Assembly: GCA_963810095.1 (NCBI GenBank)
Contig: CAWEMM010000009.1
Coordinates: 544,001-608,000, forward strand
DNA length: 64,000 nucleotides
DNA from: an uncultured Chloroflexia bacterium
Lineage (GTDB): Bacteria > Chloroflexota > Anaerolineae > CG2-30-64-16
Direction of reading: 5' to 3'
Within the stretch, counting starts at the first letter, position 1. Every line of letters begins with the position of its first letter. The notes beneath the pieces were generated by a model that made no database searches, was not told the DNA's origin, and saw only the letters and a program-made list of their open reading frames with translations. The translations under genes were made by a program, and so were the position numbers. Of this stretch, positions 8,612-24,743 are shown piece by piece.

Positions 8612-9979
8612 ATGACCCGTTGGACGGTGATGGTCTATATGGCGGGCGACACCGGCGCGACCTTCGAAGGCGCGCGGGGAGACGTGCAGCTGTTTGGGAA
8701 TCTCTCCGGCCCGCTGAAGGCCGACCTGCAGAAGCTGGCCGCGGCCGGCTCGACCGACCAGGTGAGCGTGTGCGCGCAGTACGATTCGTTCGGCAGCCAG
8801 ACGGCCTACCGCTGGGTGGCGCCTCCAGCCGGCGCGCCGAATCCGCCCGAACCGGAGCCGATCGGCGAAGTCAACACCGGCGAGCCCGGCAGCCTGACCG
8901 ACTTCATCGCCTGGGCGGGCCGGCGCAGTCCGGCCGATCGCTACGCCCTCGTCATCTGGGGTCACGGCAGCGGCTGGAGCGAAGACCAGGTCTACGCCCG
9001 TTTTCCCGCGGCCCAGGCGGCGACGCGCGATGCACCCGCCAGCCGCAGGCGGCTGCTCGAGCGCGGCATCTTCGCCAGCAGCGCCGGCAAGATCATGAAG
9101 ATCAAAGACGATCACGTGCGCGGGCTGTGCTACGACGATTCCTCGCGGGACTTCTTGGACAATCGCGACCTGCAGAAGGCGCTGGCCGACGGTGCCAGGG
9201 AGTTGGGTCGCGCACAAATCGACGTGCTGGGACTGGATGCGTGCCTCATGTGCATGGTCGAGGTAGCGCACCAGGTGCGCGGCGAGGTGAGCGTACTGGC
9301 CGGCTCGGAGACGGTGCTGCCGACGGCGCTCTGGCCGTGGGAGGCGCTGCTGGGCGCACTGCAGGCCCAGCCCGACATGCCGCCCGCGGACTTGGTGTTG
9401 CGCATGGTGGGGCTGCTACCGCAAGACCAGTCTGGCACGCGCGCACTGCCGGATGTCTGCCAGGCCGCGCTTGACCTGGGCTGCGCAGAGGCCGCAACCA
9501 GCGCGGTGGATGCGTGGAGCCGCAGTCTGCTGGAGCTGCAGGACGACACCCGCGTGAAGCAGGCCCTGCGGGCGGCCGTCTCCGATCCAACCTCGAAGGT
9601 ACTGCGGATGCAGATCGCCGGCCAGGGCGCCACGGACTACGTGGACCTGTACGACTTGGTGCGGCGCTTCGTGAAGGGCTGGGAGGGACAATCGGACCTG
9701 GGGCAGTACCTGGACGGACCGGACGGAAGTGGGCGGAGCGCCGGGCTGCGGCGGGCCACGAAGGGCCTGCTCGCCGCGCTGACGCCCGGCAAGCCAGGTA
9801 GCCTGGTCCTCGGGACAAAAATCGAGGGGTTCCGGGCACGTGCGCCGGGCGGGGTCTCGATCTACCTGCCCGAGCTTAATGCACCGCTCCGGCGAAACCG
9901 GGCGATCTCGCCGGAGTACGCTAACCTCGACTTTGCCGCAACGGCCTGGAAGGACGTTATCACCCTCGCCACGAGTTAG
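8612..9979 (+). CDS. Clostripain-related cysteine peptidase (C11), no signal peptide
   Basis: WTVMVYMAGD, EVNTGEPGSLTDFIAW, YALVIWGHGSGW (His), DVLGLDACLM (Cys), YVDLYD, GVSIYLP. Confidence 0.92.
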   Translation: MTRWTVMVYMAGDTGATFEGARGDVQLFGNLSGPLKADLQKLAAAGSTDQVSVCAQYDSFGSQTAYRWVAPPAGAPNPPEPEPIGEVNTGEPGSLTDFIAWAGRRSPADRYALVIWGHGSGWSEDQVYARFPAAQAATRDAPASRRRLLERGIFASSAGKIMKIKDDHVRGLCYDDSSRDFLDNRDLQKALADGARELGRAQIDVLGLDACLMCMVEVAHQVRGEVSVLAGSETVLPTALWPWEALLGALQAQPDMPPADLVLRMVGLLPQDQSGTRALPDVCQAALDLGCAEAATSAVDAWSRSLLELQDDTRVKQALRAAVSDPTSKVLRMQIAGQGATDYVDLYDLVRRFVKGWEGQSDLGQYLDGPDGSGRSAGLRRATKGLLAALTPGKPGSLVLGTKIEGFRARAPGGVSIYLPELNAPLRRNRAISPEYANLDFAATAWKDVITLATS

Positions 9980-10009
9980 CAGGGGCCCACGAGCGGGAGC
10001 AGGCGGCTA

Positions 10010-10672
10010 TCAAGCACGGAGTCGTGCTGAATCCAGGTCCAACTCCTCGAGAGAGTTGAGCACGACGTCGGCGAGCGCGAGGGCTGCGGGCCGGGGCGGA
10101 AAGCGCGGGTCGGGGATCGCAATGACCTTCATGCCCGCGGCCTTGCCAGACTGGATGCCCGCTCCGGAATCCTCGAGGCATACGCAGGCAGCGGGCTCGA
10201 CCCCCAACTGCCGTGCACATTCGAGGTACACGTCGGGCGCGGGCTTGCCCGCGGGCATGTCGTCGGTGCAGACGGCCGCCTTGAACTTACCCCGCATGGG
10301 CTCGTCCGCAAGGACGATGGCGATGAGGCTCTTCTCCGAGCCGGATGCGAGCCCCACGGGGTAGCGCGCCGCGGCGGCCTCAACCGCACTGATCGCACCG
10401 GGCTTGTAGGGGATGCCAACACTGTAGATCGAGCGCATCCGGCCGACGATGCGCTCGATCACCTCCTCGGTCGTCAGGTCCAGGCCCAGACGGTGGAGAA
10501 CGTACTCGGCCCAAGTCTGCGTGCTCACCCCCATGCACGCTCGGTGGTCCTCTGGTCCCCAATCCACGCCCCGCTCGGCCGCCCAGGCTTTGCGGGCCGC
10601 GTCCCAACAGGGCTCCGAGTCCACGAGCAAGCCGTCCATGTCGAAGATCACCGCCTGGAGCACCGGCCTCAT
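10010..10672 (-). CDS. HAD-IA family phosphatase
   Basis: AVIFDMDGLLVDSE, GKPAPDVY, LEDSGAGI; ATG 10672 overlaps the araD stop. Confidence 0.9.
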   Translation of the reverse strand: MRPVLQAVIFDMDGLLVDSEPCWDAARKAWAAERGVDWGPEDHRACMGVSTQTWAEYVLHRLGLDLTTEEVIERIVGRMRSIYSVGIPYKPGAISAVEAAAARYPVGLASGSEKSLIAIVLADEPMRGKFKAAVCTDDMPAGKPAPDVYLECARQLGVEPAACVCLEDSGAGIQSGKAAGMKVIAIPDPRFPPRPAALALADVVLNSLEELDLDSARLRA

Positions 10673-11328
10673 CCCCGGCTGGCCTCGGCCGTCCCGTACC
10701 GGTGCTGATACCGGTCGTGGTTCGCCGCGATCTCCTCGGCGGGAAGCGTCTCCACCTGGCCGATCTGCATGGCGAGCCAGACAGTCTTGGCGACATCTTC
10801 CACCATTACCGCCGCCTTCAGCGCCTTCTCGACCGTCGCGCCGATGGTAAACACGCCGTGTTGCCGCATCAGGATCGCCACCGACTCGCCAATGTGTTCG
10901 AGCGCCGTCTCGCCGATACCGGCGCCGCCGATGCGGACGTAGGGCGCACACGGAATCTCCACGCCGAACTCGTCTGCGATGGCAGTCAGGCATACGGGGA
11001 TCGATCTGCCGACCGCGGCGAATGCAGTGGCGTAGTTCGAGTGCGTGTGTATGACGCCCCCCAGGTCGGCCCGGCCCCGATAGATCGCGCAGTGGGAGTG
11101 CGTGTCCGTCGAGGCGCCAAGCGTGCCTTCCACCACCCTGCCGTCGATGTCCACGACGACCATATTCTCTGGGCTGAGTTCTTCGAACATAACGCCCGAC
11201 GGCTTGATGACGATCAGGCCAGACTCCGGGTCGCGGGCCGACGCATTGCCGGCCGTCCAGGTGACCAGGTTGTACTTCGGCAAGGCCATGTTGGCGCGAT
11301 AGACGCGCTCGCGGAGAGCTTCGAGCAT
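10669..11328 (-). CDS. araD: L-ribulose-5-phosphate 4-epimerase (class II aldolase family)
   Basis: LVTWTAGNAS, IKPSGV, STDTxxH, HTHS, HGVFT. Confidence 0.85.
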   Translation of the reverse strand: MLEALRERVYRANMALPKYNLVTWTAGNASARDPESGLIVIKPSGVMFEELSPENMVVVDIDGRVVEGTLGASTDTHSHCAIYRGRADLGGVIHTHSNYATAFAAVGRSIPVCLTAIADEFGVEIPCAPYVRIGGAGIGETALEHIGESVAILMRQHGVFTIGATVEKALKAAVMVEDVAKTVWLAMQIGQVETLPAEEIAANHDRYQHRYGTAEASRG

Positions 11329-11527
11329 ATGGGCAACTCCAGGATGGGGTGAAGCACGATCCATCTCGCCGAATCGCGCCGGCTTATAACGATTTACGCT
11401 GGCCTAATGTTAATGCGAATCCGGCAGTAGGACAAATTGAGTAGGGATTAATCGGGCGAACGCGCCTTGTCTCTGCAGGTAAATGAGCGTAGAAAGGAAG
11501 GCGACTTTGTAAACGGCTGGAGGAAGC

Positions 11528-12022
11528 TTGATGGATGCGCGGAATTTGTGGCGACCGACAACCAAACGCCCCATGCGATCACGAGGCATGCTGCTGCAGC
11601 CGCCCCCGCGACCGGCAACAGACGCCCGCCTGACGCGGTTTACGACCTTGCTGGATACGCTGACTGCGGGAGAGAGTGCGTTGGATGCAGCGCGTCGGCT
11701 GGTAGAACAAGGCGACCCGGCACAGGCCGAGCGCACGTTGACCGAGTTCGTCTTGCGCGCCCAGCCGGTGCTGGAGCATTCGCAAGATCTGCCTCTGGAA
11801 TATGTGGACCTGCTGGGGCAGAACCTGACACGCTGCCTTGTCGCCCGAGCCGGCGCTCGTGTGGAGCAGGCGATGGGCGCAGAGCCCGGTGCGACCGCAA
11901 TGCTGCGTGCCGCGCGCGAGGACGTGGCTTCTGTGAACAAAGTGCCCGCCGAGTGGCTGGATCAGAAGACCCGCACGGCGCTGCGGCGTTTGGAGCACGT
12001 GCTCGAGCCCGCCGCGGCGTAG
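11528..12022 (+). CDS. Hypothetical all-helical protein
   Basis: GGAGG RBS at 11519; amphipathic TPR-like helices; no recognised family. Confidence 0.6.
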   Translation: MMDARNLWRPTTKRPMRSRGMLLQPPPRPATDARLTRFTTLLDTLTAGESALDAARRLVEQGDPAQAERTLTEFVLRAQPVLEHSQDLPLEYVDLLGQNLTRCLVARAGARVEQAMGAEPGATAMLRAAREDVASVNKVPAEWLDQKTRTALRRLEHVLEPAAA

Positions 12023-12109
12023 GGCCGGCGCGGTAAGTTTGGCGCAGTAACCGGCGAGGGCGGCCACATTTGGGCCGCCCTCGCCGCGTCAGTTTTCCAC
12101 AAGCGCGGC

Positions 12110-13408
12110 TTAGTAGTAGGTCTGCAAGAACGTCTGCCCGAGCGCCACGCATCCCTGGCGGTCGACGCATTGGGCGGGGACGTTCTCCACGTACAGGTCC
12201 CAGTTGTGGCTACCCCCATTCGGCAGCTGCGCGGCAATCCGGTAGCGGCCGACTCCCTGCAACTCGAACTGGAATCGCCCGGGTGTATCTCCCACCTTGC
12301 CTTCCACCCGGTAGTTCTGGTCGTTGACCTGCAAGGTGATATAGCGGCCGATGTGGTTCTCGACGACGAGCCAGGCGACGTTTTTCTTGGCGGGTTGCGG
12401 TGGTGGTTTGGGCGCAGCGGGCGCAGCCGGGGCCTTGGCGACCGCCACCCCGGCCAGGTCGATGTTGAAGGCCAGGTACTGCGCGCTGGCCCACGCTTCC
12501 TGCACCTCGGAAAAGCCGAGCTTGGCCCACTTGCTGTCGGCCGTCCGGCCGACGACTCGCACCCCGTCACCCTTTTTTAGCGCGCCGACGACCGGGTAAT
12601 TCGTGCCGGGCCCGCCTCGGACGTTCAGAGAATCTGAGGTCACCACCGCGTCTCCCGTCTCCGCAGACCGCTGGGGTGCGGTGGGGGTCGAGCGGTTGAT
12701 GCTCTTCCGGCCAACCGCCGGGCTCGTGCTGGTCGTCCCGGGCTTGTTCCAAAGGCTGAAGTTGTCGAAGCTCGCCTCGAGATCGCCATCGGTGTTAGTG
12801 CCCGCCAACACGGCGATCTGTCCGTCAGCAAAGCTCCGGTCTTGCACCCGGTCCAGTTCCTCGTCGTTCGCGTACATGGACAGCTCGCGGCCGTTGGCCA
12901 GCACGCCGAGCCGGTTCTGCGCTCCCTCGCCCGTCTTCAGGGCCTTGGTTTGGGTCCACTCGACCGGCCGGCTCACTTCGCCGTCTACGTACTTGAGCAG
13001 AGCATACCAGCCGTCGGCACTCGTGAGAAAGGCGTAGAAGTTATCCACGTCCTGATAGCGAAAGATAATCCCTAGCATCGCGTCGGCCGGCCCGGCGTCT
13101 TCTGTGGCATCCACCTGCACGTAGAAGTCTTTGAAGGCTTGCGGTGCGTCGAGGGCGGCCCAGCGGAAGAGCTCGGATTCGGGCACGCGCAGCGTGAGGG
13201 CGCCCGAGGCAATCGTGCGAAGGGGATCGCGGCCTTCGTCGACCGTCCACTGGCCTTTGTCGCGGCTGAAGGTGTCGCTGACTTCGCTTGCGCCTTTGCG
13301 CCAGTCGTCAGGGCTCGGGCCCTGGGCTGCGGCGCGCGCCGAGGGCAGGACGAGGGCAAGCATCATGGAGAGCACGAGCGGCAACGAAAATGCTCGGAGA
13401 CCGGTCAT
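12110..13408 (-). CDS. Secreted protein: DUF1080-like beta-sandwich, SH3b domain and C-terminal domain
   Basis: Signal peptide; DFYVQVDA..GIIFR..NFYAF..FDNF; LNVRGGPGTNYPVVGAL..W..W. Confidence 0.8.
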   Translation of the reverse strand: MTGLRAFSLPLVLSMMLALVLPSARAAAQGPSPDDWRKGASEVSDTFSRDKGQWTVDEGRDPLRTIASGALTLRVPESELFRWAALDAPQAFKDFYVQVDATEDAGPADAMLGIIFRYQDVDNFYAFLTSADGWYALLKYVDGEVSRPVEWTQTKALKTGEGAQNRLGVLANGRELSMYANDEELDRVQDRSFADGQIAVLAGTNTDGDLEASFDNFSLWNKPGTTSTSPAVGRKSINRSTPTAPQRSAETGDAVVTSDSLNVRGGPGTNYPVVGALKKGDGVRVVGRTADSKWAKLGFSEVQEAWASAQYLAFNIDLAGVAVAKAPAAPAAPKPPPQPAKKNVAWLVVENHIGRYITLQVNDQNYRVEGKVGDTPGRFQFELQGVGRYRIAAQLPNGGSHNWDLYVENVPAQCVDRQGCVALGQTFLQTYY

Positions 13409-13796
13409 GAGCAGTCGTTCCTTTCGCAGCGTGGCAGCGTTGCAACGTTGGAATAGGGGCCATCATACGCCCGAGCGGCGTATTGCGCAACCTGGCGAAG
13501 GCAGAGCTGTGCGTGCCGTGCGTGCAATCGGCTGGTGCTGCGACGGCAACTCCGCCTGCCTGTGACGCCCTCCGCGTCAAGGCAAATCTGTGCAGATTGA
13601 CTTTCTTGTGAAATGCGTCATGGAAGTTGTGCTGACCCTCGGCTTTGTCCGGCGAACTTGCATGTAATTGTGAGTGTAACGTTTGGGCTTTACAACGAGC
13701 ATAGCAGGGAGTACAATGCACCTGTCTGCGAACGAGCGGACTGTTCAGGCGGCGGACCTGGTCATCTTGAAGGCCTCGATACTGGAGGGAACGACA

Positions 13797-14672
13797 ATGA
13801 ATCGACGCATTTTCCCCGTATCTCTGTTTGTGATCGCAGTGCTCCTCTTCACTTTCGGCGCAGCCAACGCTGCACTCGTCACCACGAACATTCTGCGCTC
13901 CTGGGATGACGGGTTGAACCGGTACGAGAACGGCAACCTGACGATGTTCCTGAACACGGACCGGCAGCCGTTCTACACGCAGTTGGACTTTGACACGAGC
14001 CTGCATCCGGACGCGTGCGGTGCGGGCACCAACAGCCAATGGGCGGGCGATGCGACGATTGGCCTGTACCACACGGACAACAACCCGCCTGGTGCGCCGG
14101 GCTTTCAGAGTTCGGGCAACTGGAAGTTGGTCAAGTGCAGCACCTTCAACACGAACAAGTATCCGGCCGCGGCCGACGTTCTCGCCCCCTGTGTCCCGGG
14201 CAACCCCGGCGACGCAGTTGACAAGGGCTGCGTCCTGATCGGTACGCCGGATGTCATCGTCACGTGCTCGACGGGCAACTGCACGGACGAGATCGAGACG
14301 CAGTTCCACGTCAACATCGATCCGGGCGACGGGGTGAATGCGGCGACTAAGTGCGACGGGACCATGGACGCGCCGTTTGCCGGCGTGTGGTCGTCCAACC
14401 CCAAGAACAACAACCTGTGCATGTACTGGGACGCGGTCAAGCCGCCCCAGACGGCCAAAGCCGACGCGTGGGGCGGCAACATCCAGGTGCGTTACGGCGC
14501 GGGTGTGGGTGGTGACAAGACCATCAACTTCAACGACCTGCTCGGTCCCAACGCAGTCAGTATTTCGCAGCTGAAGGCGGTCGGGGACGCGAATCGGGGC
14601 TCACTCGCAGCATTGGCCGGCGGGATGCTGCTGGCCGCGCTCGGCCTGTTTGTCTGGCGGCGCCGCTCGTAG
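13797..14672 (+). CDS. Secreted Cys-rich protein with C-terminal anchor, copy 1
   Basis: GGAGGG RBS, signal peptide ending ANA, 8 Cys, GPNAVSISQLKA + TM helix + RRRS tail. Confidence 0.85.
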   Translation: MNRRIFPVSLFVIAVLLFTFGAANAALVTTNILRSWDDGLNRYENGNLTMFLNTDRQPFYTQLDFDTSLHPDACGAGTNSQWAGDATIGLYHTDNNPPGAPGFQSSGNWKLVKCSTFNTNKYPAAADVLAPCVPGNPGDAVDKGCVLIGTPDVIVTCSTGNCTDEIETQFHVNIDPGDGVNAATKCDGTMDAPFAGVWSSNPKNNNLCMYWDAVKPPQTAKADAWGGNIQVRYGAGVGGDKTINFNDLLGPNAVSISQLKAVGDANRGSLAALAGGMLLAALGLFVWRRRS

Positions 14673-14693
14673 CTGCCGCGCCGTCGCTCCTCT

Positions 14694-14735
14694 CAGACCT
14701 CCAGACCTTCCGTTTTCGGCCAGGCCTGGAGGTCT
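14694..14735. repeat. Family D palindrome / possible terminator
   Basis: AGACCTCCAGACCT...AGGCCTGGAGGTCT; related to 32937-32972. Confidence 0.55.
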
Positions 14736-14955
14736 TTATGTTGTCCTTCTCCATTTCTTCAACCAAAATAACAATAATTGTCTCTAAGCCCCTCCCTGCT
14801 CCTGCGTATTTGTAGAAACCTCTGATTGTAATCAAGACGCCATTCAATAGGTGCACTGATAGTAAGATGCTTGTGCCGACTACGCGCGGGCCAGGCCTCA
14901 CCCCTGCTCAGCCCTGGCCGCGGCTCCGGTCAGCATTCCACTCGTGGAGGAAATC

Positions 14956-15835
14956 ATGTCCAGTCGTCGAGTCTTCGCCATAGGCCTAATGGTCATGGCG
15001 CTGCTTCTTGTCACCCTCGGTGCAGCCAACGCTGCACTCGTCACGACGAATATCCTGCGCTCCTGGGACGACGGGTTGAGCCGGTACGAGAACGGCAACC
15101 TGACGATGTACCTGAACACGGACCGGCAGCCGTTCTACACGCAGTTGGACTTTGACACGAGCCTGCATCCGGACGCGTGCGGTGCGGGCACCAACAGCCA
15201 ATGGGCGGGCGATGCGACGATTGGCCTGTACCACACGGACAACAACCCGCCTGGTGCGCCGGGCTTCCAGAATTCGGGCAACTGGAAGCTGGTCAAGTGC
15301 ACCACCTTCGACACGAACAAGTATCCGGCTCCAGCCGACATCCTGGCGACCTGCGTGGCGGGCAACCCCGGTGATGCGACCGACAAGGGCTGTGTCCTCA
15401 TCGGCTCTCCGGACAATGTGGTCGGCGTGCTCGACTGGCAACTGCACGAACGAGATCGAGACCAAGTTCCACGTCAACATCGATCCGGGCGACGGGGTGA
15501 ATGCGGCGACTAAGTGCGACGGGACCATCGACGCGCCGTTTGCGGGGGTGTGGTCGTCCAACCCCAAGAACAACAACCTGTGCATGTACTGGGACGCGGC
15601 GAAGCCGCCCCAGACGGCCAAAGCCGACGCATGGGGCGGCAACATCCAGGTGCGTTACGGCACGGGGGTGGGTGGTGACAAGACCATCAACTTCAACGAT
15701 CTGCTCGGCCCCAACGCAGTCAACATTTCGCAGCTGAAGGCAGTCGGTGAGGCCAGCAAGGCGTCGCTGGCGGCGTGGGCGGCTGCCATGATGCTGGCGG
15801 CGTCGGCGCTTTTCTTGTGGCGCCGGAAGGCCTAA
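14956..15835 (+). CDS. Secreted Cys-rich protein with C-terminal anchor, copy 2 (frameshift near 15425)
   Basis: Long nucleotide-identical stretches with 13797-14672; GPNAVNISQLKA + TM + RRKA. Confidence 0.85.
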
Positions 15836-15845
15836 CCTCGACACA

Positions 15846-15880
15846 TAAAACCAGGCGCCCTCAGAGGGCGCCTGGTTTTT
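15846..15880. terminator. Bidirectional terminator
   Basis: AAAACCAGGCGCCCTC-A-GAGGGCGCCTGGTTTT between convergent genes. Confidence 0.85.
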
Positions 15881-15914
15881 GGTGCGTTGCATCGCGTTGC
15901 GCCCGCGCAGGGAA

Positions 15915-16764
15915 TCAGGGCGCGCTTAGAAACTCGTTGACCAGCGTTATGAACTCCTCGGGCCGGTCCCGCTGCGCCCAGTGTCCCGCACCCGGCAGCA
16001 CTTCCAGCCGGCAGTCGGGAATCATCCAGCACGCTTCCTTCGCATACTGCACCGGCACGAGCGTGTCCGCGCCCCCGTGAACGATCAGCGTCCTGGCGGC
16101 AACCTGGTCGAGCCGGGGCATGAAGTTCGTGCGCAGCCCGTGCCAGAGCGTCTCGTGCTTCTGAAATGCGTTGAATGCTTTGCCCGCACGCGGCTTTCGA
16201 GACTCTGCCAAGACTGCGTCGAGCAGTTCCTCCGTCAGTGCGCCGGGCGTGCGCACCAGCTGCCCTAGTGAGGCGCGCATGGCCGAGCGGCTGCGCGTGC
16301 TCAGGTACGTCATCTCCGTAACGAACGGGATGCGCACCAGCAAATAACTGAGCCACTGGGGTGGATACTGCGGTTGGATGCCCGTACGTGTCGACGAGCA
16401 CCAGGCGCCGCACACGCTCGCGATGACCCAGGGCGTAATCCAGGGATATCCCGCCACCCATCGAGAGGCCTGCCAGGTCGAACTGCGTGAGCCCCCAGGC
16501 ATCAACGAGCGCCGAGAGCACGTTGCAATAGTAGTCGAGGGAGTACGGGGCTTCCGGCCGGTCACTCTCGCCGTACCCGGGTAGATCCGGCGCGATCACC
16601 CGCCGACCTGCGGCGAGCGCCTCCATCACGCCGCCCCACGAAAGAATCGCGGAATCTGTGCCACCCCCGTGGAGCAAGACCAGCGGCGGCTGCTCCGCCG
16701 TCTCGCCGGCGGCAAGGAACCGGATGCGCACGCCCGCAAGCATCAGGGTTTGAGATGTGATCAT
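15915..16764 (-). CDS. Alpha/beta fold hydrolase (frameshift near 16380)
   Basis: LVLLHGG, APDLPGYGES, GLSMGG nucleophile elbow, HGGADTLVP, GAGHW. Confidence 0.88.
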
Positions 16765-17058
16765 ACGCCCTCTCGAACCCCCGGGGACAGCCCGGCCCGG
16801 GGCGATCGCTGAAAACGACTGGAGCGCCGCGTCGATGCGGTGCGAGCAGTATCCTCCCGAAAGCCGCGACTGCCAAAAGTGATCATGTCACATCGGACGG
16901 TGCCCGCCAGCAGCGTGGAGGGGGGCAGCATGATGAGTTCGAAAAGTTGATATCGGCGGCCGCTTCGGCTAAACTGTGTTGGAACCACGTTGCGCGCACG
17001 TGCCTCCACGCCCGGCCGATTATGGAGGCTTCGCATCCATTTCCGGGAGGGTCATACC

Positions 17059-18669
17059 ATGTCTCGTCGCGTACTCCTGCTGCGCGGTGCGCCCCGTCGT
17101 CGGCTGTTGGCCGCGTGCTTGACCGCGCTTGTTCTGCTCGCGGCCGTGCCCGTCGCGTCGGCCGCCTTGCCCCAGGCAAGGGCCGAGAGTCTCAGCCCCG
17201 CGGGCCCGCCGTGTCTCAACTGCACGCCCTGGCGCACAATCAACACCGACAATGGGACGGTGGATGATCTGGGTAACGCACAGGTCTATGCGCCCTCGCC
17301 GGCCTGCACCAACGCCAACCTGGCCGACTACCTCGAGATCAAGCAAGCCTGGATCGTCAATGACGGCCGCGCGTTCTACTTCCGCATCCAGCTATGCGTC
17401 GCGCCCACCACCCAGCAGCGCAACAACCTGCGCATGGGCGCGGGCCTCGACTGCAACCATGACGGCGACGTGGCCGACCCCTGGGGCAACCAAACCAACC
17501 CCAATTCGGGCGACCGTAAGTTCGTGTATCAGGCTGCGAGTGACCAGGTGCTCGTGCTGGATGGGCAGAACACCACCGTGCTTAATCTGCCTTCGGGAGG
17601 CGCGATCTACGGAGAGGAGCTGTCCGGCTCGACCGTCTACGAGTGGCAGGCGCCGCTCGAACGAGTCTATCCCGGCTGCCGAGGCAGTGTGAGCGTGATC
17701 GGCCTGGGAGTGGGAACCGTTGCCTTGCCGAGCCCGGCTCCGAAAGACCAGACGCCTTCGTATGACTGGAGCCATCCCATCGATTACGGCGACGCCGTGA
17801 ACCCAGATCCCACCCAGGGAACGTGCAGCCAGTATCCCTCCCGGGTCGGTTGCGACGGCGCTCGACACGGTCTGTACGTCCCGCCGGGTTTGTCTGAGCC
17901 GCTGCGTCTGGGGAGCCTGGTGGATGCGGATGACGGGACCAACCAGGATGCAGCCGCGGTTGCGGACGATACGACGGGGACCGCCGACGAGGATGGGGTC
18001 GGCCCCACCCCAGGGGTCGCATGGACGCCGGGTGGGCAGGGTTCGATCGACGCGACGGTGACCGGGGGGACGGGCTATCTCAGTTGCTGGGTCGATTGGA
18101 ACAACAACACCAGCTGGAGCGACGCGGGCGACAACGTGATGTCTGACCGGCCGGTGGCGCTCGGGCTGAACCGGCTGACCTTCAGCGTGCCTGCGGGCCT
18201 GACCTACCCGACCAGCTTCATAGCACGCTGCCGCCTGTCGCCGGGCGCCAACCAGGCCGCCACCGTGACGGGCACAGCCGAGTTCGGCGAGGTGGAGGAC
18301 CACTCCTGGAGCTTTGATGGGGCGGGCCGGCCCATCTTGCCGGACGCGCCCAGCGCCGTAACAGATCTCGCAATTGCCGCCAGCGGGACAAGTGACGTCA
18401 AGTTGAGCTGGAGCAATCCGCCGCCCAACAATGGTGCGCGTGTCCTGGCCCATGCCAGCAACCCGTACTTCACCTCAGCGACCGGGGGCTTCGCGCTAGA
18501 CACGACTGTCAGCGCCGCGCCGTGGGAGTACGTTCATGCGGGCGTCCGCGGCACGCCACCCGACGCGTTCTACTATATCGTCTACGGCCGGCTTGGCTCT
18601 GCCGACGCCGCCGCGCCGTCCAACCGGGTGGGCCTGTTCGAGTTCGGGCTCGTCGCCGGGCAACCATAG
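17059..18669 (+). CDS. Secreted GEVED domain protein
   Basis: Signal peptide; DYGDA, DxDDG..DEDGV, WVDWNNN, FGEVEDH; FN3-like tail ending SNRVGLFEFGL. Confidence 0.85.
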   Translation: MSRRVLLLRGAPRRRLLAACLTALVLLAAVPVASAALPQARAESLSPAGPPCLNCTPWRTINTDNGTVDDLGNAQVYAPSPACTNANLADYLEIKQAWIVNDGRAFYFRIQLCVAPTTQQRNNLRMGAGLDCNHDGDVADPWGNQTNPNSGDRKFVYQAASDQVLVLDGQNTTVLNLPSGGAIYGEELSGSTVYEWQAPLERVYPGCRGSVSVIGLGVGTVALPSPAPKDQTPSYDWSHPIDYGDAVNPDPTQGTCSQYPSRVGCDGARHGLYVPPGLSEPLRLGSLVDADDGTNQDAAAVADDTTGTADEDGVGPTPGVAWTPGGQGSIDATVTGGTGYLSCWVDWNNNTSWSDAGDNVMSDRPVALGLNRLTFSVPAGLTYPTSFIARCRLSPGANQAATVTGTAEFGEVEDHSWSFDGAGRPILPDAPSAVTDLAIAASGTSDVKLSWSNPPPNNGARVLAHASNPYFTSATGGFALDTTVSAAPWEYVHAGVRGTPPDAFYYIVYGRLGSADAAAPSNRVGLFEFGLVAGQP

Positions 18670-18710
18670 CAGGACGCGGGTGACCCCTTCATGGAGTCAC
18701 CCGCGTCCTG
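18670..18710. terminator. Hairpin between convergent genes
   Basis: CAGGACGCGGGTGAC...GTCACCCGCGTCCTG, 15-bp stem. Confidence 0.75.
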
Positions 18711-18722
18711 TTCCGTTCGAGC

Positions 18723-19097
18723 TTAGCCCAGCCGCCGGGTCTTGACGAAGTCGACGAGCGTGTCGAGCAACTGCTTGCGATACGCGGTTGCCTCGGCCAC
18801 GTGGCGCTCATGTACGTCGTAAACTGACTGCGGTACTCGCAGGTCACCCGCATCCACGACGATCGGCACCACGACGACCCGGTCGCCGTCGAGGCTGATC
18901 TCGGTGCGGGCCACTTCGACCTTCTCGCGGCCGATCTGCACCTGGCCGGTCGTGTCGAGCACTTGCACGCTTGTCACGACGGTCAGGTTCGAGCCGTCCG
19001 CAATCTGATCCGCAATCGTTTGCAGCGCGTTCCGGATGGACAGCTCGGGCGTCGGATTGGCGCGGTTCACCGTCGGTTGTGTTTCACTGTCCGGCAT
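18723..19097 (-). CDS. Hypothetical protein, paralog triad member 3
   Basis: GAGGAGG RBS; ARTEISLDGD and HERHVAEATAYRKQLL motifs shared with the two upstream genes. Confidence 0.85.
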   Translation of the reverse strand: MPDSETQPTVNRANPTPELSIRNALQTIADQIADGSNLTVVTSVQVLDTTGQVQIGREKVEVARTEISLDGDRVVVVPIVVDAGDLRVPQSVYDVHERHVAEATAYRKQLLDTLVDFVKTRRLG

Positions 19098-19139
19098 ACG
19101 AAAACCCTCCTCTGGAATCCAAAATCAATCTCAAACTCA

Positions 19140-19880
19140 TCAGCTAATGGTCCGTAGTTGACCGAGCGCCTGCACCTGGTCGATCACCTGGCGGACGAAA
19201 CGGTAGGCGGCTGGCAAGGCGAGCGCCGGGTTCAAGCTGAACAGCGCGCTCAGTTGGATCGCGCCCCGGGTGACCGTCAACCCGAGGCGCAGCCAGGCGT
19301 CGCGCGTCCTCAGGGCCAGCGCGACTGCGGCCACGTGCTGCTGTGCGTCGTCAAGTGCCAGGCCGCGGGCCCACACGGTCTGGAAGTCACCGGTCCACGA
19401 TACGAAGGTGAGGCCAATGCGCCCGCCATCCAATCCGGTGTCGATGGCGGCGTAGTTGCGCAGCGAATCGTGAACCTTGTCGAAAAACGCCGCGACCTGG
19501 TCCAGGGGTCCGCCGGCTGGCGGCGGAAGGGCGGCTGCATTGCTGGCCGCGACCCAATCGTACAAAGCGGTCTCGGGTGTGGCGAGCGCGGGCGGCAGCT
19601 CAGCCGGCGGACCACCTGCGCGCACAAAGGTCGTGAGCCGCCGGGCTGCGAACGGCAGGGCCAGTTCTGCCGCGGCCAGCCGGCGTTCTGCGCCCGCCAG
19701 GACGTTGCCCGCGGTCTTGCGATCTGCCGGCAGCGCAACCTGCCACAGTGTCACGTCCGGGCCCGGCTCCTCGCCCGCGCTCTCCAGGCCGAGGTCGCGC
19801 GGGGTCGCCACTGGCAGCGTCTGCCAGATCCCCAGCTCGTCGTCGCCCCCCGCGCTGCTCGCGAAGCCAAACTCCGGCAT
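19140..19880 (-). CDS. Hypothetical protein, paralog triad member 2, hydrophobic C-terminal segment
   Basis: GLTFVSWTGD and HVAAVALALRTRDAWL motifs; 1 bp from the upstream stop. Confidence 0.8.
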   Translation of the reverse strand: MPEFGFASSAGGDDELGIWQTLPVATPRDLGLESAGEEPGPDVTLWQVALPADRKTAGNVLAGAERRLAAAELALPFAARRLTTFVRAGGPPAELPPALATPETALYDWVAASNAAALPPPAGGPLDQVAAFFDKVHDSLRNYAAIDTGLDGGRIGLTFVSWTGDFQTVWARGLALDDAQQHVAAVALALRTRDAWLRLGLTVTRGAIQLSALFSLNPALALPAAYRFVRQVIDQVQALGQLRTIS

Positions 19881-19881
19881 G

Positions 19882-20482
19882 TTACTTGAGGGCGGGAATG
19901 AAACCGGCGACCAGCTCGCCGACTGTCTTCAGCATGGCCTGGCGGTGCGCCTGGGCCTGCTCGACCGTCTGCAGGTGGATTTGCCAGAGCGCTTGGTCGA
20001 TCTGCCCGGCGTCGACGGGGACGACGACCTGGGTGTCGCCGTCGAAGTCGATATAGGTGAGGGCTCGCTGCTGTGCGAACTCGAATCCATTGGCGCCGTC
20101 AGGCCGGACTTCCTCGATGCGCTCCGAGACGTAGGTGCGCACCTCGAGGGTCGAAACATCGTCGGCAAAATCGACGATCTTCGTGCCGAGCGTCTCCAGT
20201 GCGTTCCGCAGTTTGTCCAGGACCTGCTGGAACGGGCCGGTCTCCGCCGCTCCGTCTTGCCGGCCCCCGCCGAAGAAGTCGCCGAGGCCGCGTGCCGTGA
20301 CGCCTTCCATTGCCAGGTCAGGCGACGCCAGCGCGGCGGACGGCTAGCACGGTGATCGTCACATGTCCCTGCGGTCCAACCTGCACGGTGACCGGGCCGC
20401 CGGCGGGTGCGGGTTGAGCGAAATCGGGAGGCACCTCGGGTGCGGGCTCCTTGGACGGGTCAGATCCTGCGGCGCTAGGCAT
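19882..20482 (-). CDS. Hypothetical protein, paralog triad member 1 (probable frameshift near 20340)
   Basis: GGGAGG RBS before ATG 20482 (MPSAAGSD...); C-terminal part has ALTYIDFDGD and HLQTVEQAQAHRQAML. Confidence 0.75.
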
Positions 20483-20512
20483 GCAAACCTCCCTCTGCGA
20501 TAGCTGTAGCGC

Positions 20513-20523
20513 ATTATACCACA
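20513..20523 (-). promoter_or_regulatory. Extended -10 promoter for the paralog triad
   Basis: Minus strand TGTGGTATAAT about 30 nt upstream of ATG 20482. Confidence 0.6.
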
Positions 20524-20701: not shown

Positions 20702-21495
20702 TCACTGACCTACGACGAACTGCACCGGCGGGCTGCCTGCGCCCCCGGACGCCCCAACGCCAAGGGTGGCCAGGATCCGGTGGTTGCCATCGCGCAGCGC
20801 ATCGATGGCCTGCAGCTGTGCCAGTTGATCGTTAGTCTTGCCGCAATCCAGTGCGTTGCTCAGCATTTCGATCTCTGCCAGCGCGGGCTGCGGCCACGGT
20901 CCTGAGTTCCTGCGCGCGGGCCTCGGCCGCGATCCGGGCTTGTGCAACCGTGGGCGGGGGGACGATAATCAGCTCCAGGCTTTGCACCGCCACGCCCAGG
21001 TCCGCGACCCGGCGCTGCAGTTCTTCCTGAAGCAGCGCCTGGAACCCGTCGGGGTGCTGCATGATCTGGATTAAAGTGTCGAGGTCATACCGGCTCAGCG
21101 CGGCCCGCACCGTCAGTTTAGCCTGCGTCTCAACGGTCGGCGACGTATTGCCCAGGAAAGGCAACACCTGCTTGAGGTCGATCTGCGCCAGCCTCTGCCG
21201 GGTCTGCTGCCAGCCGACAACCACGGTCACCAGGGCAGACAGTCCTTCGCGCGTCTGCAAGTTCAGTCCATCCAGAAGCGTGCGCTGAGGATGGAGGTCG
21301 AGCAACTGCACGTCGTCCAAACCCGGCACTCGGAGGTACCAGGCCGGGCCGGGGCAGAGGTAGGTGGCACGCCCACTCGTGCGCTCGCGCAGGATCACTG
21401 CTTCCATATCCTGCGCCGCGCCGGACGGTGAGCGCTGCGATGAGGGCCGGAAATCCAACCGCGACGAGAACCAGCAATGCGGGCCAGGTATCCAT
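20702..21495 (-). CDS. SPFH/Band 7 (stomatin-like) membrane protein (frameshifts near 21420 and 20880)
   Basis: N-terminal TM helix; EAVILRE, QTREGLS, VRAALSRYDLDTL, LGVAVQSLEL..PP, AAEARA coiled coil. Confidence 0.65.
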
Positions 21496-21520
21496 GTTCT
21501 GTCCCTCCTTCTAGGCGGGA

Positions 21521-21540
21521 TGTTAGACAATTGGACAGCT
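21521..21540. promoter_or_regulatory. Candidate GntR operator, left
   Basis: TGTTAGACAATTGGACAGCT (tandem TTRGACAR), just downstream of the leftward -10. Confidence 0.55.
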
Positions 21541-22455: not shown

Positions 22456-24743
22456 ATGACGAACACATCGAGCGACAAGCTCCTTCTGGAACCCGACCCG
22501 GAACTGACCGAGGCCCTGGATCAGATCGCCAGCATCGGCGCGCGCGACATTGACCGCAAACAAGCCGTGCGCGAGATGGCCGAGATCGCCCGCCGCGGCC
22601 TGCGGTCAGAGGCGTGCCTCATTCTGTTGGTCGACCACAGCACGGGTGCGGTAGAGCACCTCGAGTGCGTGGGCAACCCGGAGGTGCAGCGCCACCTGTG
22701 CGACCGTCGCATGCGCTGGGGGCCCCTGCTCTCCCGGGCCGGCGGCGGGCGGGCTGCGCCCGCTGAGCCGATCGAGCGCCTGGGTCTGATCGAGGAGGGG
22801 TTTGGGGTGCTCTTGCCCCAGGTTGCGCGACAACACCGGCTGCACGCGCTCCTCGCGCATCCGCTGCTCGATGACCGCGGGCTCTTTGGCTACCTGGTTC
22901 ATTTCAGCCCCCGCAACGCGTTTTCAGAGCCGGAGCGCCGCCTCGCGACGGTGATGGCACGGCATATCTCGAGAACCTTCGAACGGTTGGAGAACCTGGC
23001 GAGCCGCCGCAGCCTGCAATGGCTCAGTGCAGGGATGCAGAAGCTGGCCGAGGCCGAGAGCGAGGATCAACTCCTGGAGATCCTGCTGCAGGTGGGCATC
23101 GACCTGGCTCATGCGCCGCGCGGCACCGTGGAGCTGCTGGACACTGCGACCGGCGAACTGGCCATCGTCCGCCAGGAGGGGGGGCAGCCCACCCAGCGCA
23201 AGCTGGCGCAGGGCCAAGGCATTGCCAATGTCGCGCTCCAGGAGGAGCGGCCCATTATCGTGGACGACGTGACCCAGCCTCCTTGGTCGGCCATCTTCGT
23301 CGAGCACTGGTCTGACACCCGCGCCGAGTTGGCCGTTCCGATAGTAGTCACGAGTGCCGCGGTACGCCGCGGCCTCGACGTCGTACCGCGTCTCGGCCGT
23401 TTGGCGTGCTCAACCTGGAGAGCCCCGATGTCGGCGCCTTCACGCAGACCGACGCGGATCTGCTCTGGTCGCTCGTCCGGCACGGTGCGGTGCTGTACGG
23501 CCACTTGCAGGCCGAACGCAAAGCGCGCGAGCTGGGTGCCGTGCACCAAAAGATCCTGGACAACGCCGACTGGAACGAGACGATCGACATTATGATGAGC
23601 GCGGTCAACACGATCCTGGGCTATCCCTACATCAACATCTCGCTCGTTCACCAGGACATCGGCCGAATCCGGACCGAATACCTGTTGGGTGTGCCGCCTG
23701 CCGACATAGAACGCTTCCGCACCCTTGCCGACCACCCGCTCGACAGCAACGATATTCAGGCGCACATCTATCGGGACCAGCGTATCGAGGCGCCGGAGCC
23801 CGACGACGAGCGCCTGGACCCGATAGTCGTCGCCGCGTTTGGCCAGGCCGACCTCGTGCGCGTCTTTCTGCCCATGATCGCACCGTCGGATCACCGGGTC
23901 ATCGGCACGCTCGAAGCCGGTTTCAAGCGCAGCCGGCACCGCCAGTACATCTATGAAGAAGATGTCCAAATCCTCAAGGCGTTCATCGACTACACGGCCT
24001 ACGCGCTGGACAAGCGCCAGGCCTACATCCTGGACAAGATCGGCCACGAGTTCCGGGCGCCGCTCGCCGGCATCCGCAACAACGCGCACGAGATGCAGCG
24101 CTACATGCACACCATGAACGCAGATGTCATCCACCACAAGTTCGACGACATCATCACCGACTGCGAGATTCTGCTTTCGCAGCTGGCCGAGCTCGAGCAC
24201 ATCCTGGGCAAGCCGCCGCCACCACCCAAGATCGCGCGCACTCTGGTGTTTCGCGACGTCGTGATCAAGACCCTGCGCCAACTGCAGCCGGAACTGCGGC
24301 ACCGCGGCCTGCGCGCGTTCGACTACGACCCCAACGATATCCTCAGGCTCGGTATCATGTACGTCGACAAGACGCGCCTGGGCCAGGTCTTTCTTAACCT
24401 GATAACGAATAGTATTAAGTACGCAGGACCGAATAAGGCGGAGTTCCGGGGTAAGGTGGAAGTGCAGGCCGATGAGTCGGGCCAAGCCTGGCTAGTCAAG
24501 GTGCAGGACTGGGGCATTGGCGTGGGCGAGGAGTACAGGGAGGCGATCTTCCTGGACGGCGTCCGCACGCCCGAGGCGAAGCACTGCGATCCGACCGGTT
24601 CGGGGCTGGGGCTGACCATCTCGCGCCAGATTATGCGTGAGATTGGCGGCGACCTGACCCTAACTCACATGTCCAAGCCCACCGAGTTCGTTGTCCGCTT
24701 GCCGAAAGCGCTTGCTCGCAAGCCCGAAGGAGATTTGCGATGA
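22456..24743 (+). CDS. Cytoplasmic multi-GAF sensor histidine kinase (frameshift near 23400)
   Basis: Three GAF-like repeats (e.g. GQGIA..A..ERPIIVDDV, ELAVPI, VLNLESPDVGAFT); IGHEFRAPL H-box, NLITNSIKY, DWGIG, GSGLGL; no TM segments. Confidence 0.9.

Follow-up and report, generated by a model that had tools for sequence, protein, structure and literature searches.

Three adjoining genes, here called A, B and C, lie on the minus strand of the window (the whole 64-kb stretch of DNA analyzed here) and belong to no named family, raising the question of what kind of machinery such a compact triad encodes. The features on which the answer turns are as follows, in order of coordinates.

18670-18710, no strand assigned: hairpin between convergent gene ends, with a perfect 18-bp stem
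18723-19097, minus strand: gene C, 124 aa, a single free-standing module copy
19140-19880, minus strand: gene B, 246 aa, with an N-terminal helical part, a remote module copy and a hydrophobic helical hairpin
19176-19292, minus strand: hydrophobic helix-turn-helix of B, residues 197-235, WLRLGL...NPALALPAAYRFV
19248-19511, minus strand: module copy of B, residues 124-211, with AAIDTGL, GLTFVSWTGD and HVAAVALALRTRDAWL, placed by hhalign and secondary-structure order
19882-20310, minus strand: module part of gene A, a 142-aa ORF comprising a helix, a β-meander and a long C-terminal helix
20318-20482, minus strand: N-terminal part of gene A, a 54-aa ORF forming a linker-like extension with the GPVTVQVGPQGHVTITV motif and ending in a premature stop after 54 codons
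20344-20347 (near 20346), minus strand: frame break in gene A
20488-20493, minus strand: Shine-Dalgarno sequence GGGAGG, read from the sequence, 5 nt ahead of the ATG at 20482
20513-20523, minus strand: extended -10 promoter element TGTGGTATAAT, ending 30 nt before the ATG at 20482

An earlier note made from the letters alone had described these genes as tightly packed and equipped with their own promoter and a downstream hairpin, and each of these features is indeed present. A single nucleotide separates the stop of A from the start of B, and the 42-nt gap between B and C holds a GGAGG box. The extended -10 element is the sole TGnTATAAT in the 64 kb, where 0.07 are expected by chance per shuffle, and it is kept upstream of A in all six relatives examined (L001-L004, L055 and L056); a consensus scan returned no -35/-10 pair. 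This conserved strong promoter suggests constitutive expression of the triad, a pattern equally in keeping with a structural complex and with a latent toxin. At the other end, the folded stretch 18660-18725 has a dG of -40.4 kcal/mol (z -6.72), equalled by none of 200 shuffles. The hairpin lacks a T tract, which is why a scan for terminator-like elements found none, and it is probably a bidirectional terminator of the kind without a T run.

Gene A is broken in the window. In all 27 relatives (27/27) it is a single ORF of 189-223 aa (about 200 aa) opening with MPxA..GPVTVQV.PQGHVTITV, and the 54-aa and 142-aa ORFs of the window together match that gene. Translation of 19882-20482 against the relative P0002 and others locates one base in excess of their common reading, ...TITV-QPSAAL.... 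The contigs of sequencing runs X1-X4 end at 20314 or 20345 and resume at 20352 or 20361, so that none spans the break; the best DNA run contains 0.30 of the sequence words, and no RNA run containing the sequence is listed. Two further split genes lie close to the triad in the window, which makes an assembly indel possible; as the gene stands, frame-broken, the copy may be decaying. The N-terminal extension of stand-alone A shares a motif with the linker of the fused form P0088, and it also has the aromatic-Gly motif that precedes the module in fused and unfused forms alike.

How the three proteins are related can be judged from the three ordered motifs reported by the earlier note, which occur in A, B and C exactly as quoted and in the module ORF of A read LEVRTYV, TxIxFDGD and HxxxVxxAxxxR. 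The claim of paralogy built on them is clear for A and C, which match each other at a BLASTP E-value of 2e-10 and, as families, with an hhalign probability of 97.5% (E 5.7e-12). For B it has to be narrowed to a remote copy, with the likeness covering only about 60-90 residues instead of the full length. With narrow profiles B matches A or C weakly (E 0.04 and 0.01, probability 1-4%), and with broad profiles (alignment A4 against A5) it aligns in the same register at 76% (E 2.3e-5). Cross-family HMM matches within small sets of ORFs point the same way, with the B of locus L006 matching the A/C profile at 9.2e-7 and the C of G006 matching the B profile at 1.4e-6. The order of secondary-structure elements agrees as well: H17-32, E38-48, E55-67, E80-87 and H90-123 in a low-confidence AF2 model of C (pLDDT 57.5), against H124-141, E143-150, E153-160, E166-170 and H176-211 in the module of B, the likeness in fold of A or C to B being solely one of this order. 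C has 30 relatives at E<=0.001, counting the window's own protein. Three rows were left out of the alignments, namely P0001 (the window's own 142-aa protein) from A1, P0047 (a 160-aa fragment) from A2, and P0086 from A3, the last being a 110-aa protein with a precomputed PF02086 domain that matches only 56% of C. Among 26 diverse sequences the module has nine invariant columns, namely T, A, T, the second D of the DGD loop, P, H, V, A and R, and the D and G preceding that invariant D are conserved in at least 90%. By sequence comparison, then, A and C are clear paralogs, and B has a remote copy of their module in its C-terminal half.

B retains the TGD, H and R of the module and is distinguished from A and C by about 120 additional residues N-terminal of it and by the hydrophobic C-terminal segment that the earlier note had pointed out, which is real and proves to be a hairpin conserved across the family. 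This segment is a helix-turn-helix with a proline at the turn and not a single helix. Of 20 B relatives, 18 have their most hydrophobic 19-mer here, and ALPA...F is invariant; the Kyte-Doolittle means among these 20 range from 1.1 to 2.2 and reach at least 1.6 in 12, while the window's copy, at 1.33, falls under the usual transmembrane threshold. The best 19-mers of A and C score 0.87 and 1.28, and neither protein has a hydrophobic stretch. No fold match was obtained for B, the largest subunit, and a search of the ESM Atlas with it returned only scores of up to 0.84, to unnamed clusters.

Predicted structure bears out, as far as a model can, the heteromer that the earlier note had proposed. 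A three-chain model in which B is the partner chain set against A and C gives an ipSAE of 0.74 (0.73, 0.74 and 0.78 in three runs), and the A-B interface thereby scores above all three controls, the best of which (A replaced, C kept) reaches 0.47 and both partner-replaced ones 0.00. In the tool's calibration, 116 of 157 solved complexes and 2 of 215 mismatches attain the mark used for ipSAE; the present job differs from that calibration in using our own alignments and three chains. The runs have at least 82% of contacts in common, with partner pLDDT of at least 79. In the predicted interface the first strand of A lies against the third strand of B and the two C-terminal helices pack together, with A contacting residues 153-176 and 179-208 of B; the conserved helix face of A, including A119 and R123, falls within the subunit interface, and the hairpin of B is built into both the folded core and the interface. 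The prediction speaks for B binding to A, and A, B and C probably form one complex.

The module is far from rare. A family search recovers 885 representatives (clusters at 50% identity) at E<=0.001 and 533 at E<=1e-10, and in nearly all of the 150 representatives listed it occupies the C-terminus. The statement that no named family is involved holds for this widespread module in the databases scanned: A, B, C and the 54-aa ORF have no match over cut-off in Pfam, NCBIfam or PADLOC, Pfam at E<=1 gave only weak unrelated matches for A, B, C and their relatives, a PDB sequence search with both profiles and one fused protease gave nothing at E<=0.1 (one match at E 0.71 was disregarded), and an ESM Atlas search with C gave no usable match. 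The module has no existing family model and no solved structure. In the literature on Trypco1/Trypco2, CATASP/CATRA, nSTAND1-caspase and gingipain-like STAND/WD40 systems we did not find it described, although Kaur et al. 2020 and 2021 may list it in their supplementary tables. Its distribution is patchy, as is typical of accessory genes, with 19 of 401 genomes in the phylum carrying it, of which 16 of 25 belong to one family.

A clue to function comes from the proteins to which relatives of A are fused. Of the 52 listed representatives with at least 300 aa, 37 were scanned, and 20 of these have a peptidase domain at E<=0.001: 17 a Peptidase_C25 domain, one a CHAT domain, one Trypsin_2 together with nSTAND1 and WD40, and one Peptidase_C39_2 with SH3_3. 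In relatives the module typically forms the C-terminal end of a Peptidase_C25-like or CHAT caspase-fold protease, followed by B, usually by C, and usually in the vicinity of nSTAND1/WD40 giants. It can also be repeated, with four tandem modules between the nSTAND1 and WD40 parts of P0089 and further tandem arrays behind a protease. Our view of gene neighborhoods is a sample rather than a full census, comprising 12 loci from genome contigs and 15 from metagenomes, 10 of the latter under 2.1 kb. Within it, a protease-A fusion followed by B and C is found at L005, L007, L061 and most loci of family f21; at L009 the protease, A, B and C each have a gene of their own, as is apparently the case at G006, where the protease and A frames overlap. 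C was not found beside A-B at six loci (L006, L010, L011, L066, L067 and L068), so a three-part assembly is not universal. Where enough flank is available, a STAND/WD40 giant lies within 3 kb of the protease gene at seven of nine loci (L005, L006, L007, L066, G000-C6, G006 and G402) and is absent within that distance at L061 and L067; such giants are common in Chloroflexota, so part of this adjacency could be chance.

The window itself departs from this arrangement. Within about 6 kb on either side of the triad there is no protease or STAND gene, and the neighbors are genes for a GEVED-domain protein, an SPFH protein, a GntR regulator and a GAF kinase. On contig C6, however, the same genome has a gene for a 1329-aa nSTAND1-WD40 protein and, next downstream of it, one for a C25-like protease. 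This protease shares 55% identity with that of L005, ends 13 residues past GDPAVRL and lacks an A domain; the catalytic Cys of such proteases lies in an FHF(A/G)C motif. No other module copy was found elsewhere in the genome. Since the sensor and the A-less protease sit on another contig, the triad of the window is a detached A-B-C module. Stand-alone triads of relatives likewise have unrelated neighbors (an ABC transporter, miaA, an M20 peptidase). A search with one query at E<=1e-5 found no protease homolog in three of five relatives' genomes searched (G401, G403 and G404, carriers of detached triads, with completeness not given), so the triad can exist without that protease. As a side observation, many Chloroflexaceae-type loci have a SufE gene after C, and none is present in the window or at L001-L007, L010, L011, L066 and L067. 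This was judged to be lineage synteny, the SufE neighbor being seen in one related group of loci alone and absent from other lineages.

Given these fusions and neighborhoods, the triad is likely to be a new component at work in bacterial immunity or cell death. Our preferred reading, held tentatively and at slightly less than an even chance, is that A-B-C, as a hetero-oligomer, is the detached C-terminal arm of a STAND/caspase-like conflict system, serving it as effector or adaptor, and that B may be the membrane-active subunit. The parent system would be of the NLR/apoptosome type and combine an nSTAND1-WD40 sensor NTPase, a Peptidase_C25-like caspase-fold protease and paralogous helix/β-meander/helix modules. 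These modules would pair by strand-to-strand and helix-to-helix contacts into a cytoplasmic A-B(-C) hetero-oligomer. A Pro/Ala-rich linker joins A covalently to the protease in most relatives, and we propose that B and C are thereby held at the protease. In the genome of the window the gene has split behind the protease domain, leaving the sensor and protease on C6 and linker-A, B and C in the window under their own strong promoter. B would be the working subunit, its conserved hydrophobic hairpin buried while it is paired with A and C. Once the sensor activates the protease, a cut in the linker region of A or in the N-terminal part of B would free B, which could then act on the membrane, with the cell killed or arrested. 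Of this scheme, the paralogy, the fusions, the neighborhoods and the split within the genome are shown and A-B binding has the backing of a model, while proteolytic activation, membrane action and a role in defense or cell death are inferred. A bolder extension, which we regard as doubtful, makes the module an unnamed effector class (at least 885 clusters) of apoptosome-like systems, a protease-tethered hetero-oligomer of two or three paralogs in which cutting of the tether would free the hairpin subunit to permeabilize the cell's own membrane.

The same architecture can be read without a lethal B. The module could be a pure adaptor or scaffold, an EAD-like coupling domain that gathers proteases and their partners by like-with-like pairing in the manner of death-fold domains, with B and C as regulators or substrates. 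One copy fused to a core component with more copies in adjacent genes is what the adaptor rule demands, as given in the available part of PMC7159879, and the tandem arrays inside a STAND protein and behind a protease, the predicted pairing through the shared module, and the want of enzymatic or transmembrane hallmarks are all in keeping with it. What makes it somewhat unlikely in our estimation is that an adaptor needs neither the roughly 120 extra N-terminal residues of B nor its conserved hydrophobic hairpin, that the detached triads in genomes where the protease was not found would have nothing to couple, and that Pfam yields no match to a named adaptor family. Should the module be only an adaptor, it would be a mixed α/β counterpart of the death-fold coupling domains. 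Stand-alone triads with their own conserved strong promoter and unrelated neighbors, the three genomes without a protease match, and the SufE genes after C in many Chloroflexaceae-type loci would fit a cytoplasmic complex of Chloroflexota and some Myxococcota that works autonomously in a structural or housekeeping capacity, unconnected with conflict and only secondarily recruited by fusion to proteases. The presence of the module in just 19 of 401 genomes of the phylum, its repeated fusion to four different peptidase families and a STAND NTPase, and the confinement of the SufE neighbor to one related group of loci speak against such a complex, which we hold to be distinctly improbable.

The invariant DGD loop, His and Arg could instead mark the active or binding site of a small enzyme or ligand-binding family, and the nine invariant columns and the retention of TGD, H and R in B would agree with this; yet no enzyme family matches in Pfam, NCBIfam or PDB sequences, the conserved helix face with A119 and R123 of A is placed by the model in the subunit interface, and tandem repetition and attachment as a C-terminal appendage are more typical of interaction domains, so that an enzyme appears very unlikely. 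A secreted tripartite α-pore-forming toxin is suggested by three diverged paralogs in one operon, one with a hydrophobic segment. Judged by eye from the translations, none of A, B and C has a signal-peptide-like start, which makes secretion unlikely; the proteins are also far smaller than such toxins, and their genomic partners are cytoplasmic proteases and NTPases, and we give this explanation hardly any credence.

Pairs of a protease and its linked effector are now regarded as a principal logic of immunity and regulated cell death in bacteria, and to our knowledge only a handful of such effector families have been named or tested. Gene fusions link the present abundant module with STAND NTPases and four kinds of peptidase, making it a testable new candidate for a substrate or effector of the caspase-like proteases of Apaf-1-like bacterial systems. 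The placement of protease and module on different contigs of one genome amounts to a natural experiment on whether recognition needs a covalent tether.

The tripartite α-pore-forming toxins Hbl, Nhe and AhlABC are secreted ClyA-fold proteins of about 35-45 kDa with, like the triad, three diverged paralogs per operon and a hydrophobic hairpin in one subunit; the triad differs in being probably cytoplasmic, of 13-26 kDa, with no fold match obtained for B, and linked to intracellular proteases. Pfam holds models for both the EADs and CATRA/CATASP. The caspase-dependent ternary CATRA/CATASP system, reportedly defined by Burroughs and Aravind in 2020, has no Pfam match among A, B and C, and the fused proteases match Peptidase_C25 only. 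Similar in overall plan are the bacterial Apaf-1-like WD40 STANDs with caspase-like proteases (bioRxiv 10.64898/2026.01.04.697583), which like the Apaf-1/caspase apoptosome pair a WD40-sensor STAND NTPase with a caspase-fold protease; the portion of that preprint available to us describes no module behind the protease, whereas the protease considered here, which is of the Peptidase_C25 type, has a gene of its own and either has the A module or has lost it.

The effector-associated domains (EADs) of NTP-dependent conflict systems, as presented in the available text of Kaur et al. 2020 (PMC7159879), are small non-enzymatic domains whose pairing of copies is proposed to couple components. They resemble the module in layout, with a single copy joined to a core component and others encoded by adjacent genes, as in the protease-A fusions followed by B and C. 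Pfam at E<=1 places none of A, B and C in EAD1-11 or any other family beyond weak unrelated matches, and the module differs further in that its copies are not fused to recognizable enzymatic effectors and that B has unique helical and hydrophobic parts. EACC1, on the partial text available for the same source, recalls the triad as a constant small partner of a caspase-superfamily peptidase, sometimes with nSTAND1 (PMC7159879), and recalls B in having a hydrophobic segment thought to act on the membrane once cleaved (bioRxiv 10.1101/2025.11.14.688446, available in part). Its Pfam model has no match at E<=1 to A, B, C or their relatives. By the same partial accounts, EACC1 is a lone protein that has one Gly-rich transmembrane helix and whose gene lies 5' of the protease, whereas the triad consists of paired paralogs lying 3' of the protease or fused behind it.

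Pepco (Trypco1/Trypco2, PF19493), found with its protease in Avs/STAND systems, is also close in conception. The accessible part of Evans et al. (bioRxiv 10.1101/2025.11.14.688446) presents Pepco and EACC1 as protease-activated small pore formers in STAND-type systems, Pepco being a proposed latent membrane-active effector freed by one cut. Like the module, Pepco starts with a helix followed by β-strands, and it oligomerizes, as is predicted for the module; the linkage to a protease is shared by the wider module family (Peptidase_C25-like, CHAT, trypsin) and not by the copy in the window. A weak match of A to the Trypco1 model, confined to the helix and first strand (16.0 bits where the cut-off is 24.6; E 0.018) and echoed at E<1 in seven of 27 A relatives (best 0.0099) and in none of 29 C relatives, had raised the suspicion of kinship, which we rejected as hhalign against 15 Trypco1 sequences of the phylum gives 1.4% and 5.7%. 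Trypco1 is without the long conserved C-terminal H...R helix of the module; Pepco is one protein as against three diverged paralogs; it would be a stable β-barrel homo-oligomer activated by removal of a C-terminal tail, whereas the module is predicted to end in a long helix; and the module, unlike Pepco, is usually fused to the protease itself. If the tether-cutting proposal is true, it would constitute a third protease-to-pore route, mechanistically distinct from those of Pepco and EACC1, with an effector separable from its protease and acting in trans, as in the genome of the window.

Four open frames lie on the minus strand of the window between 20482 and 18723, accompanied by a promoter element and a hairpin:

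20513-20523, minus strand, promoter element TGTGGTATAAT of the TGnTATAAT type
20318-20482, minus strand, open frame of 54 aa
20344-20347, minus strand, frame break of gene A, placed by comparison with 27 relatives
19882-20310, minus strand, open frame of 142 aa (A)
19140-19880, minus strand, open frame of 246 aa (B)
18723-19097, minus strand, open frame of 124 aa (C)
18670-18710, perfect 18-bp hairpin between convergent gene ends

The stop of A is separated from the start of B by 1 nt, and the 42-nt gap between B and C contains a GGAGG box. TGnTATAAT occurs once in the 64-kb window, against 0.07 expected per shuffle; 30 nt separate its end from the first ATG, which has GGGAGG in front of it, and a like element, TGTGCTATAAT or CGTGCTATAAT, is found upstream of the first gene in 6/6 relatives inspected. 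A scan for consensus signals returned neither a -35/-10 pair nor a terminator with a T tail. Folding of 18660-18725 gives a dG of -40.4 kcal/mol (z -6.7). The promoter and downstream hairpin of the operon described in the earlier note were thus both recovered, as were the three motifs quoted for A, B and C, whereas its gene model of A needed correcting. In the relatives L001-L004, L055 and L056, a box of the form AAAATAGCACAGGGCAGG ... GGGTGTCAAC, which may be a regulator site, is conserved ~40-100 nt upstream of the gene A -10; the upstream region of the window lacks it. The triad is flanked by genes for a 559-aa GEVED-domain protein (16990-18669, plus strand) and an SPFH/Band 7 protein (20832-21530, minus strand), neither of which is kept beside it in relatives.

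In 27/27 relatives, A is one protein of 189-223 aa that starts MPxA...GPVTVQV.PQGHVTITV and continues into the sequence of the window's 142-aa frame. The first frame of the window matches them up to ...HVTITV, then departs and stops, and the common reading returns one base out of frame, which points to a one-base break in A near 20346. The 142-aa frame starts at an internal methionine, 8 nt past the premature stop, with no Shine-Dalgarno box. Contigs of four public runs carrying parts of the A region end short of the break site from both sides. Two further genes within 5 kb are also divided between overlapping frames:

15832-16764 / 15915-16565, minus strand, split alpha/beta hydrolase, with the N-terminal half in one frame and the C-terminal half in the other
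22456-23595 / 23406-24743, plus strand, split GAF-GAF histidine kinase

Finding three disrupted genes inside 10 kb hints at indel errors, and an indel-prone assembly is a fair explanation of the break in A.

By sequence comparison, A and C are beyond doubt paralogues (BLASTP 2e-10; hhalign 97.5%, E 5.7e-12 over 92 columns). B is far more divergent, with a pairwise BLASTP value of 0.035 to A and no match to C. Narrow profiles of B against A/C gave E 0.04 and 0.01 at probabilities of 1-4%, in alignments that keep the same register (T-x-V-x-W-x-G-D, then H..V..A...R). Widening both alignments with distant loci (A4, the A/C module, 26 sequences; A5, B, 20 sequences) raised the hhalign result to 76% (E 2.3e-5) in an unchanged register. 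HMM searches of small ORF sets matched the B of locus L006 to the A/C profile (9.2e-7) and the C of genome G006 to the B profile (1.4e-6). The AF2 model of B is confident (pLDDT 85.1, pTM 0.82) and shows, in the module part, a helix (124-141), strands at 143-150, 153-160 and 166-170, and a second helix (176-211); the model of C is poor (pLDDT 57.5) and has the same order of elements. From the broad profiles, the cross-family matches and this shared order, we conclude that residues about 124-211 of B form a remote module copy, which lies between a unique N-terminal part with long helices (54-88, 101-114) and an extra C-terminal helix (218-245). Profile alignment, the check that had been proposed for the paralogy, hence bears out the claim of three divergent paralogs in full for A and C, and for B in this region only.

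For the complex prediction, A was entered as residues 20-142 and C as 12-124, B served as the scored partner, and every chain had its alignment. The prediction reached an ipSAE of 0.74 (runs 0.73, 0.74 and 0.78), passing a mark attained by 116/157 solved complexes and 2/215 mismatches; the calibration behind that mark differs from the present case, which used custom alignments and three chains. Replacing B brought the score to 0.00 in both such controls; replacing A while keeping C gave 0.47, which suggests that C can occupy a similar position on B. Contacts agree between the runs to at least 82%, and the pLDDT of B is at least 79. As there is no solved complex like A/B/C, the pass is unlikely to stem from predictor memory. 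The confident predicted contacts pair the LEVRTYV strand of A (55-63) with B strand 165-171 and lay the C-terminal helix of A (107-140) along B helix 176-208, so that the shared module itself would form the interface. The multimer model thus supports a hetero-oligomer built through the module. C was not found next to A-B in six loci (L006, L010, L011, L066, L067, L068), leaving A-B as the constant pair.

A search with an A/C module profile yielded 885 representatives, clustered at 50% identity, at E<=0.001; of these, 533 reached E<=1e-10. Among the 150 representatives listed, the module is C-terminal in nearly all; 98 are shorter than 300 aa and 34 have 600-899 aa. The domain scan covered 52 of these 150, namely 37 of the 52 with at least 300 aa and 15 of 200-299 aa. 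Within the 37, a peptidase domain was detected at E<=0.001 in 20: Peptidase_C25 in 17, and CHAT, Trypsin_2 with nSTAND1 and WD40, and Peptidase_C39_2 with SH3_3 in one each. The other 17 gave no Pfam match whatever. The Trypsin_2-nSTAND1-WD40 protein P0089 (2675 aa) carries four tandem module copies (residues 994-1325). In genome G255 (L035, 1471-3219, minus strand), several B-like or module-like stretches follow a C25-like protease, and an ordinary B gene adjoins. The protein P0177 combines a C39-like peptidase, SH3_3 and the module; separately, the window codes for a 432-aa secreted-looking SH3_3 protein (12110-13408, minus strand) with 63% identity to the gene directly downstream of the L002 triad (L002, 7740-9032; L001, 8692-9957).

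B and module genes occur together in every locus with sufficient room. A protease-A fusion opens the set in L005, L006, L007, L061, L066, L067 and L068, and does so too in most loci belonging to one family of the phylum. In L009, the protease, A, B and C each have a gene of their own, side by side; G006 looks alike, with protease and A in overlapping frames. Giant nSTAND1 and/or WD40 proteins are encoded no more than 3 kb from the protease gene in 7/9 loci with enough flank (L005, L006, L007, L066, G006, G402 and contig C6 of the window's own genome, G000; absent from L061 and L067). The distribution of B is patchy and accessory-like: it was found in 19/401 sampled genomes of the phylum, 16 of the 19 among 25 genomes of one family, and beyond the phylum in two Myxococcota bins. 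Two of the 19 have altered copies, interrupted by an in-frame TGA in G180 (L031) and split into two adjacent pieces in G153 (L033/L034). Many loci of a single related group have a SufE gene after C (L009, 3261-3692; L012, 1622-2056; L061, 8727-9158; L016-L022); being absent from the window and other lineages, it is probably lineage synteny.

In the window's own 6.1-Mb assembly (88.5% complete), the module occurs only twice, as A and C. The protease lies apart, on contig C6 (L070):

9058-11091, minus strand, Peptidase_C25-like protease without A module
11341-15330, minus strand, nSTAND1-WD40 protein of 1329 aa, directly upstream of the protease

This protease shares 55% identity with the protease portion of the L005 fusion and ends 13 residues past GDPAVRL, the motif that closes the protease domain in fusions. 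The N-terminal extension of stand-alone A shares a GGP-xT-xQ-x-xPQG-xVTI motif with the linker of the fused protein P0088, and also has an aromatic-Gly motif found before the module in fused and unfused forms. Most simply, the gene would have split immediately after the part for the protease domain, and linker-A, B and C would then have relocated with their own promoter. In G402, also a genome whose triad is detached, an A-less protease likewise lies beside nSTAND1 and WD40 genes on another contig. With one query at 1e-5, no protease match was found in the detached-triad genomes G401, G403 and G404, which counts against an obligatory tie.

A protease/STAND conflict system is the likely context of A-B-C. 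The three paralogous modules are fused elsewhere to caspase-fold and other peptidases and keep company with STAND/WD40 giants, and in this genome the arrangement is split. This context lay beyond the claims of the earlier note. We propose that the set would be the output arm of an NLR/apoptosome-like system, in which the protease, switched on by the sensor, would cut the tether or the N-terminal part of B, and B might then act through its conserved hydrophobic helix-turn-helix. This hairpin contains the most hydrophobic 19-mer in 18/20 relatives (mean hydropathy 1.1 to 2.2 across relatives; 1.33 in the window). Precedent for such a step comes from Pepco and EACC1, small protease partners in systems of this type, which a preprint describes as pore formers freed by one cut (bioRxiv 10.1101/2025.11.14.688446). 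The main competing view is that the module serves solely to couple proteins, as an adaptor akin to effector-associated domains. Three lesser readings would take the predicted heteromer as an autonomous structural complex, the invariant DGD, H and R as the basis of an enzyme, or A, B and C as a secreted tripartite toxin.

The earlier note recognized no named family, and indeed A, B and C have no match above cut-off in Pfam, NCBIfam or PADLOC, nor any in a PDB sequence search. Kinship to Trypco1 was rejected: the match is weak (16.0 bits; E<1 in 7/27 A relatives), and profile comparison with 15 Trypco1 sequences of the same phylum gave 1.4% and 5.7%. We found no name for the module in four family libraries or in the literature searched; it may already be mentioned in the supplementary domain lists of Aravind-group papers. 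As it stands, it is a new family in a known kind of system, the protease-linked effector/adaptor modules of bacterial STAND systems, with the unusual traits of two or three diverged paralogues predicted to pair among themselves, direct protease fusion and natural split forms. The adaptor reading draws strength from the rule described for effector-associated domains, by which a core component bears one copy, neighboring genes encode further copies, and like pairs with like (PMC7159879); this rule fits the A-B-C architecture well.
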